The translations under genes and the position numbers were made by a program. The notes under the pieces were generated by a model. The model did no database searches. It had not been told where the DNA came from and was given only the letters and a program-made list of their open reading frames with translations. Shown here piece by piece: positions 34,101 to 37,100 of a stretch of DNA of 64,000 bases (the stretch's first letter is position 1; every line of letters begins with the position of its first letter). The DNA comes from Phoronis australis (taxonomy: Eukaryota; Animalia; Phoronida). Where the stretch lies: NCBI GenBank assembly GCA_002633005.1, contig NMRA01000282.1:101858-165857 (forward strand), read 5' to 3'.

Positions 34101-37100
34101 CTTATTTTTTCCTTCGTTTTAACAGTACTAGGTCAAAAGAACGTTCTGTAAGCCGTGAATGACCAATTTGCATTTTCAACTGGGGTTGTCTTTTAGCTCA
34201 GCAAAGCTACATTTCCAATACCTCAGCTCAATCCAGCCATAGAACAAAATGAGTTGCAATATATTGGACACGTTCTAGAGCTAAAAGCACCATTCACTTT
34301 AACCTACCCGGTGCACTTAATGTCCCTTTTGTAAAACGTGAAGGTGAAGAACTGCTGAGTATGCATACACATGCTTCAACAGTGTAAGAAAAACCTTACA
34401 CAAAAAATAAAACACTTGTATGCTGCGCAGGGCGGACAATCTTACTCTCTTTCGAACCACACAACATTCCAAAACAGTGAATTTTGCTCATGAAATTCAA
34501 TTCTTTTCTGACATCACAGACACATTTCCATTCTCATGAAACAGTTCACCCTGACAGGATGGGAAGGTGCACACTAGGTTCCGAAAGAGTGCCCCCATTA
34601 CGCTTTTGGAAACATTCACTTTCCCGAAGTGATTTTGCATACACAAAAACCCCCAAGGTGGGGCATTCTGTATTGCTTACCGCAGTGCCCTCATTTGCAA
34701 TGGGCTGTAAGAAGGAATGACTGACTGCACTCGAGATTGGAAAATTTAACTCCGTGATGACGGCATCGGAGCTAGGGATTTGTTTCTCCGACTTAAGATT
34801 TTAACTTTAGTTAACTAAAATATCTTCCTTGTCAACTCGTCAATAAATTTTGAAACATTTGAACCGTCCTTGTGATGACCAACATTGAAAAAATAATGAC
34901 ATTTTGTCACATTGTCCCATATCACAAATACAAAACGATCCTATAACAGCTACCACAGAGGCGTCCTCAGTTCTCGTTTCCGAAAAAGACCCCATGGGAG
35001 TTTTAAGTTGGTGGTGGTTCTTTAAGAAATCCCCAGTGCTCCATACTACATAGTAGCATATGCTTAGTACAACGAAACAAATCCCTCTACAAGCAACAAC
35101 TGGGTGCAACACCGGCTCAGTGGGAATGAAACGTGTTTGTAAGAAATTGTGGTGCACGAGAAACAAAATAAACCTCACTATAAAGGATTGTATTCATGAA
35201 ACGGAACACCGTTCAAATAGAGAACGCCTGTGTGGCTCTTCAAGGAAGAAGGTTGTCTCCCCTGCTGAGGTAAATCGTCAAAGCGTCAATGCATGTTTGG
35301 AATGCCCAGTCTAGGAAATAGACGGGGATGAGGAGAAAACTAAGTGAGAGATGAGAAGCACAGTGGTAAGTCTATGACGAGAAACACAAGCTGGCACACA
35401 TGGCTCTCATTGGTCAATCTCATCAATCGTAAGGTTAGGCACAGGCCCAAGATCGCTAAACATTACGCCGACTCTGTTCGAAAATTTAAAAATCCAACGG
35501 TACGTTTTGAGATACTTTTTACGACTTCACGCGATGTGATTGATCAATTTTCGATCTTAGTCTCAACTAAGGTTTGACAGTCTTCGAACATAGTCTTACA
35601 TCCGGACATCTGTTGAGGAGTCTAAATGAAAACCTATGGAAGACAGATAGGTTACTTCGGGTATTAGTCACTTACAGGGGTCCCATTTTGAGAACCAGTT
35701 TCTTGCTCTGAATAACCAGCATCAACATGGTCCTCAAAATCCGTGTCCCCTGTAAGTGCCTTACTTCATACAGAAACCACACGCTTTTTTCAATTAAGAA
35801 GCAGTTACCAATAGCAACATCTCTCTGCGACAGTTTTCATCAAACGTTAACAAACTATGTATTTCTAAATTTTTAGTTCAGCCTAAACAAGCAAAAAGAT
35901 TGATTTTCAACTCAACAAGTAAATCCCTCCTGTATATAACTGAAAAAGATCAGTATCTTTAAACAGACAGTCTTCATAACAAAGTAGCTTCACATTCAAC
36001 TCATCCAGACTAAATGTCAACAGCATCTGGTTGTGAGACTAAGTCATAGGCACAGTAATGTCTACTCTACATAGAGCATCGGTGGCGGCAGGTCACATGA
36101 CCTGCTGCCAACTGTCAATGAATCAATCAAAAAAATGTTAAGGGCTGGCTAACCGGCAGGTGGCGGGGTCTGCAGTCTTGCCGTCAGGTTCCGGTTGCAA
36201 AGACGACTCTTGCAACACCGCGTGAACACGTACCAAGGTTTGCCAGAGCGGCCATCACACTGTCGCGGCGCAGAGGGAGGCACCAACAGGTTCAAATCTA
36301 GGCAGCTACAAGAATCAATGACACATTTCAGACGCAGTGCCCGGCATATGGTCCTGTTCGCTTCAGCTATTTGAGGCTGTGCCATCAAACGTGCGCAAAT
36401 ATGTGGCACACAAGCAACCAGTTGAGGGCGCTAGCACAATTAATGGCATAACTCCAAAAGATCAACAACACAAGGCACCCAAATAGCCAGTCAGACGAAC
36501 AGTGTCGAATGTTTACCTGCGGCGAAGGGATTGTCAGGTCGCAAGGTCGCTTCCAAGTGGCGGTTGCAGTAGTTGACATGATGACAGCACTCAATTTTGT
36601 GAATGTGGTGTCGTTGGACGCCCGTCTCGCAAATCATAAATGGTTCGCTATATGTGATCAACATGTCGTAACTGTAGCATCTACAATGATACCTGGTGAT
36701 AACTAACAACACCAGCCCAAAGGGGGCGCCACCTATGCCAAGACGAATGTAATACCAGGTTAGTTGACACCACAGCCAGAAGTAAAACTGTCAACACATA
36801 CACGAGAGCACTCGGAGGAGCAACACTTGGCGAAATTATGCGAAAACAGGACGATGTGGAGGATGACGACGACGATGATGACGATGAAGGTGGAGAGATT
36901 ATGAACAACACGATAACATTCATGTGACAAGCGAACAAATCAGTAAGAAATAGCCTGCAGTCTTGTTCACGCAACCGGTAAACTGGCAACAGTGCGAGAG
37001 CGCTCGGAGGAGCGACACTTGGCGAAATTACGTGAAAGCAGGACGATGGGGAGGACGACGACGATCATGACGATGAAGGCGGAGATTATGAACAACACGA

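Follow-up and report, generated by a model that had tools for sequence, protein, structure and literature searches.

Known and probable exon switches in activin-type receptors

Invertebrates mostly possess one ALK4/5/7 gene and several activin, myostatin and, in spiralians, Nodal-type ligands, and how a single receptor tells these ligands apart has been answered in the fly alone. Jensen et al. reportedly described in 2009 the mutually exclusive exons 4a, 4b and 4c of the Drosophila gene baboon (babo). The three isoforms arising from these alternative fourth exons are tissue-specific and ligand-selective (PMC7371420, excerpts). In vertebrates, ALK4, ALK5 and ALK7 (structures 7OLY, 7MRZ, 2PJY and 6MAC) are the products of separate genes and select their ligands largely via the beta4-beta5 loop (PMC8718839, excerpts).

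Sequence databases hold further sets of alternative forms. Among 88 full-length homologues, a swap at the same position between identical flanks was found in Manduca, Bacillus, Rhynchophorus, Periplaneta, Aethina, Cloeon and a termite pair, in Artemia (three forms) and in Crassostrea gigas. The TGF-beta receptor type-1-like X1-X3 of Artemia franciscana and the insect RefSeq sets comprise two or three alternative cassettes at this position, all of them pancrustacean database predictions. In certain arthropod gene models (P0057, P0059, P0119 and P0154) two cassettes follow one another within a single protein, and these are probably mis-joined mutually exclusive exons. In the oyster, XP_011414113.1 (isoform X1) and NP_001292288.1 have identical flanks and cassettes that differ from the same cysteine on, with 35% identity; the alternative is represented by one predicted sequence against 14 of the main form. 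The swap in XP_011414113.1 is absent from the excerpted scallop and oyster gene-structure text of PMC3510168. No within-species swap was seen in clusters of 20 proteins (chiton, Ostrea, Bradybaena, Patella, scallops, Pomacea and Lingula), a weak result given that isoforms of ~90% identity can fall in other clusters. A search of the literature, mainly open-access papers, returned no description of such isoforms outside insects, and babo does not occur in the excerpts of the Strigamia genome paper text and its supplement file 57 (PMC4244043).

The window analysed here, a stretch of 64,000 nucleotides, contains an ALK4/5/7 gene with two candidate alternative exons, cassettes A and B (3A and 3B). 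Like Drosophila babo, it encodes a type I receptor of the activin branch in which ectodomain exons are duplicated and the kinase is shared, and the cassette corresponds to the region swapped in the fly (PMC7371420, excerpts), as a first-pass annotation of this DNA had suggested. The cysteine at which A and B diverge is also the switch point in insect database isoforms. The locus is unlike babo in having two cassettes, where the fly has three, and in a host that is probably lophotrochozoan; the sequence comparison was made via other insects. We regard A and B as a real and old cassette pair of the babo type, with A in use and B likely so. The reading that we hold to be probable is that B replaces A in some tissues or stages, one kinase thereby serving two receptors with likely different ligand preference.

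The receptor gene and its two cassette exons

The receptor gene is intact, lies on the minus strand (44570-9970) and has 10 exons per transcript (Table 1), with open frames of 515 residues when cassette A is included and 511 with cassette B. It encodes a signal peptide, an ectodomain with a CC-x4/5-CN box, one transmembrane (TM) helix, a GS box and a Ser/Thr kinase with intact catalytic motifs, and has Pfam matches to Activin_recp, TGF_beta_GS and the kinase. The start codon in exon 1 was our choice; RNA read ends pile up nearby, at 44593-44600.

Table 1 Features of the receptor locus and neighbouring genes in the window
Feature	Position	Strand	Evidence or remark
Exon 1, coding part, signal peptide	44486..44570	-	Joint 44486>40823 in RNA reads and X1 contig
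Exon 2, N-terminal ectodomain half, common to both forms	40700..40823	-	Pfam Activin_recp positions 6-38, E 1.2e-4; spliced
Cassette exon A (3A), 164 nt, phase 2-1	36517..36680	-	Joints in RNA reads and X1 contig; Pfam Activin_recp 39-78, E 6.8e-4
Intron between cassettes, 211 nt	36306..36516	-	
Cassette exon B (3B), 152 nt, phase 2-1	36154..36305	-	Open frame, AG/GT, profile E 1.2e-5
Exon 4, TM helix and GS box start	26222..26452	-	Frame, RNA joints, Pfam
Exon 5, GS box end, kinase N-lobe, L45 loop start	16600..16830	-	Pfam TGF_beta_GS and kinase; PDB
Exon 6, kinase	16032..16199	-	Ends deduced from AG/GT sites and reading frame
Exon 7, kinase catalytic loop	15249..15332	-	
Exon 8, kinase activation segment	11300..11497	-	
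Exon 9, kinase	10305..10435	-	
Exon 10, kinase C-terminus and stop codon	9970..10101	-	
Transglutaminase-like gene, 3' exons	60205-62038	-	Pfam Transglut_C on 61817-62038, E 1e-9
C2H2 zinc-finger gene, long exon	2944-4332	+	Convergent with receptor gene
THAP-domain fragment in intron 4	23683-23916	-	Probably transposon remnant
Exon-like open frame of another gene	47591-47872	-	No Pfam match at E 0.01
Exon-like open frame of another gene	55330-55605	+	No Pfam match at E 0.01

The top named protein matches are of the TGFBR1/ACVR1B/ACVR1C type, and among solved structures in the PDB exon 5 matched TGFBR1 best (128 bits), followed by ALK2 (115) and ALK6 (107). Sequence comparison supports an ALK4/5/7-type type I receptor with a kinase nearer to ALK5, ALK4 and babo than to the BMP type, the kinase tree having been built without a BMP-receptor outgroup. 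The ectodomain has eight cysteines instead of the usual ten. The second and third, which we take to form one disulfide pair, are both absent from exon 2 and present in 80 of 80 homologues checked (77 fit the pattern and the three misses are pattern slips), and a whole disulfide has likely been lost from this half of the ectodomain. The residues of the kinase glycine loop were alike in none of 152 homologues, and a kinase glycine where an aromatic or aliphatic residue is usual in none of 140. The first half of the L45 loop fits the Smad2/3-type consensus (PMC3510168, excerpts); three of its nine residues differ, a variant present in 0/108 homologues. Judged from these residues, the Smad preference or kinase activity of the receptor may differ from that of its homologues, and the divergent sequence may belong to a fast-evolving orthologue or a second paralogue. 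The exon count of 10 is that of bivalves and exceeds the nine of mammalian Tgfbr1 (PMC3510168, excerpts); we take the intron in mid-ectodomain to be the additional one.

The gene is probably lophotrochozoan by its sequence. In the intracellular-domain tree the adjacent row is Lingula, with a support of 82/87 that was unstarred, and a tryptophan immediately ahead of the GS box recurs in eight of 31 other rows, none of them among the 10 arthropod or three vertebrate rows. The first-pass annotation had called the gene apparently non-insect, which is likely, although AU tests of alternative kinase placements (p 0.45-0.61, one long row left out) rejected none of them within a set of rows from which invertebrate deuterostomes are absent.

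The exon coordinates, lengths, 211-nt gap, AG/GT ends, phases and both peptides that the first-pass annotation gave for the cassettes were all correct on rechecking, as was its placement of them between an exon 2 that ends in phase 2 and a TM exon that starts in phase 1. The cysteine spacing is C-x15-C-x13-CC-x5-CN in A and C-x14-C-x13-CC-x4-CN in B; Pfam gave no match on B at E 1. A profile of 71 distinct homologous cassette segments, run against 2220 six-frame segments of the window, gave full-length matches at two places alone, A (E 6.6e-11) and B (E 1.2e-5). Within 26453-40699 the cysteine box occurs in two of 113 open phase 2-1 AG..GT candidates, namely A and B, and the profile search of this interval for further cassettes yielded no third one. 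The A/B pair is beyond chance. The next profile match in the window, at 55750-55589 on the minus strand, is partial (E 0.0025) and probably due to chance; situated upstream of the receptor gene and lacking a Pfam match, it was rejected as a cassette.

RNA evidence and the integrity of cassette B

Of the four runs of RNA mapped to 26000-45999, one was a contig set; the other three, all from a single study, were raw-read runs sampled to 18-19% each. Cassette A is spliced into RNA. The joint from exon 2 to A (40700>36680) was present in 5, 7 and 31 reads of the three raw-read runs and that from A to the TM exon (36517>26452) in 7, 10 and 45, compared with 26, 25 and 94 reads for the constitutive upstream joint 44486>40823. 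Both joints also occur in the X1 contig, so that two of the junctions predicted by the first-pass annotation were recovered, with A spliced on both sides in all three raw-read runs and the contig set. Among the joints listed (15 of 247) none touches B and none joins A to B, and none of the contig pieces listed (8 of 427) lies over B, though pieces down to 124 nt appear. Pooled A-to-TM joints amount to 61% of TM-exon depth (62/101), which is near what A alone could give and leaves little for another route, and pooled joints on the upstream side of A to 28%, which leaves room for one; a pile-up of reads at the 5' end could explain the gap between the two values. Most mapped reads fall on multi-copy intronic repeats (31336-33336, 36672-40006 and 41341-43341), and the element at 31.3-33.3 kb is strongly strand-biased in RNA.

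The two cassettes share 57 of 150 bases in a codon alignment (38%), and identical codons are used at only four of 15 shared residues, from which we conclude that the duplication is old. Decay of B was simulated under a simple neutral model in which splice sites, frame and cysteines had to be kept. This was the case in 2851, 429, 12 and 0 of 20000 replicates at 0.05, 0.1, 0.2 and 0.3 substitutions per site, respectively. None of 2000 shuffles with the cysteines and the box asparagine held fixed reached the profile score of B. Its cysteine spacing is that of human ALK5, as are the prolines seven and three residues before the second cysteine, and the six bases at its donor (the last exon base and five intron bases) are those of the donor used in exon 1. 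Frame, splice sites, shuffles, simulation and ALK5-like features together indicate that B was under selection for most of its history, leaving only a recent loss. The view of B as a decayed copy of A was rejected on the low identity, the simulation and the intact hallmarks.

In pairwise comparisons B scored best with distant insect cassettes (71), and 35 with A, which ranked 31 of 61. No orthologue of B was found in the protein, representative, metagenome and Atlas searches. Protein searches with A and B returned no scored match (eight candidates in one, none in the other), and the Atlas search one cluster at 0.86, which is a lead. The five matches in the representative set were all repeat-rich proteins without the cysteine box, and the three loci from a metagenome scan of 22 of 64 parts were all chance matches; both groups were discarded. 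Each exon alone matched type I ectodomains in the PDB at E 0.05-0.5.

Such a recent loss would mean that B, once a working alternative exon, has fallen silent and that the gene now makes the A receptor only. The presence of A junctions alone among the joints listed, in four of four runs, fits this account, as do the 2851 simulated decays that spare every hallmark at 0.05 substitutions per site. B also has no Pfam match, an arginine at the hydrophobic anchor and a long branch in the cassette tree (1.39); branch and basic anchor residue together could reflect relaxed constraint. Against a silent B stand its open frame, its two undamaged splice sites, its five cysteines and a spacing like that of ALK5, and the narrow RNA sample described above can be set beside the tissue-restricted isoforms of the fly (PMC7371420, excerpts). 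We consider a silent B unlikely. On the sequence evidence, B is likely spliced in too, and the replacement of A by B would make it a live, probably restricted isoform.

Predicted ligand anchoring and proposed splicing exclusion

ALK4 and ALK5 hold their ligands chiefly by the beta4-beta5 loop, which contains a cis-proline (ALK4 Pro77, ALK5 Pro55) followed five residues on by a knob phenylalanine, ALK4 Phe82 (PMC8718839, excerpts). In an alignment to ALK4 and ALK5, the cassette spans this loop, beta5 and the cysteine box in full, and the structures of these receptors imply that the swap would replace all three. In cassette A the loop is extended by one residue, the cis position is not a proline, and a hydrophobic residue, methionine, occupies the knob where Phe82 of ALK4 docks; B keeps both loop prolines and has arginine there, which would give a different grip on the ligand. 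A basic knob residue was found in seven of 62 tabulated segments (hand-picked from 158 proteins, plus A and B), comprising B, the oyster alternative and five arthropod forms. By analogy, the A and B receptors likely handle ligands differently, binding other activin/myostatin-class ligands or the same ones with other strength. Predicted folds of the oyster alternative isoform had mean pLDDT values of 39.5 and 46.9 and were discarded.

The ALK5 loop placed into ALK4 conferred TGF-beta1 signalling, but most single-region swaps gave no clean specificity switch and often just weakened signalling (PMC8718839, excerpts). B might likewise be spliced either/or with A while ligand preference stays the same, tuning affinity or the dependence on type II receptor or co-receptor, or dampening the response. 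The same source reports that the ALK5 loop also touches the type II receptor and that the hydrophobic knob of the Phe82 type, which B lacks, serves both activin A and GDF11 in ALK4 (PMC8718839, excerpts). However, in fly babo, the sole tested case of such an exon swap, the isoforms pair with distinct ligands (PMC7371420, excerpts), and the cassettes with a basic anchor recur, none of them in molluscan or brachiopod genes met in one form only. A role confined to tuning seems to us very unlikely, and a difference in ligand preference remains part of the reading that we favour.

The two forms would be kept apart mainly by frame, inclusion of both cassettes or of neither leading to an early stop and a likely target of decay. 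The first-pass annotation held that exactly one must be used. At the annotated sites A or B alone is in frame and both or neither shifts it, but A+B would come into frame if splicing used a cryptic acceptor (36297) or a cryptic donor (36501), and the lock is leaky on paper. At the annotated sites, A+B reaches a stop two codons into B and would give a secreted product of 126 residues with the signal peptide and the complete A ectodomain. It is conceivable that B acts mainly together with A, as a stop-carrying decay exon, through such a secreted decoy or with the frame restored at the cryptic sites, and human exon clusters of frame-shifting length offer a parallel, joining reads being present in 22% of them (PMC5740500, excerpts). 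Such a role would not keep B's own peptide, yet B outscores every one of the shuffles, and the A-to-B joint it calls for is missing among the joints listed. This account we find highly improbable, and slightly less credible than the others.

For alternation between A and B, a stem in the 211-nt intron may help, as it would leave the A donor an effective ~40 nt from a branch-point-like motif of B. The predicted arms lie at ~36502-36478 and 36375-36354 (intron positions 15-163), with the motif near 36331-36326, and the fold contains 32 long-range pairs with p>0.5, p being >=0.93 for most of its core. In a test picked after the fold had been seen, this pairing was equalled by 63 of 1000 shuffles and seven of 166 GC-matched windows; the whole-intron (z -0.87) and whole-region (z -0.54) folds were unremarkable. 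The modelled stem, which is not significant by these measures, is suggestive of an aid to exclusion. Simple steric exclusion was dismissed, as it needs <50 nt from donor to branch point and the intron is too long, and so was a distant branch point near the A donor, with six AG dinucleotides between that point and the B acceptor.

Origin and range of the cassette pair

A tree of exon peptides, of the kind proposed in the first-pass annotation, was built from 44 columns of 61 cassettes (one mis-parsed row dropped). Two of its 58 branches were starred, and its groupings could be compared by AU test, although none was rejected: an A+B clade had a p-AU of 0.49, and B with the oyster alternative 0.69. 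The oyster alternative resembles B in the arginine at the anchor and in four common cysteine-box residues. Its pairwise scores, 61 against A and 33 against B (rank 34 of 61), do not support orthology with B, a reading that was considered and set aside. A more far-reaching scenario, which we put forward tentatively and consider doubtful, is a splicing switch inherited from the protostome ancestor as a pair of hydrophobic- and basic-anchor exons and kept in arthropods, the oyster and here, with the stem enforcing exclusion and A+B serving as a decoy. If this were true, splicing would have done first the job that in vertebrates fell later to ALK4, ALK5 and ALK7.

The mechanism is already known in the fly; what the present pair would add concerns its range and history. 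The arrangement is less singular than the first-pass annotation implied: such pairs already appear in the automated annotation of many insects, of Artemia and, as one entry, of the oyster. Together with the oyster entry, the pair described here probably extends the range of babo-type cassettes to lophotrochozoans. If lophotrochozoans use the same exon switch, knockdown or expression studies of a single isoform would miss half of the receptor's biology, and a natural pair of receptors differing in nothing but the loop that anchors the ligand would offer a clean test of how specificity is coded.
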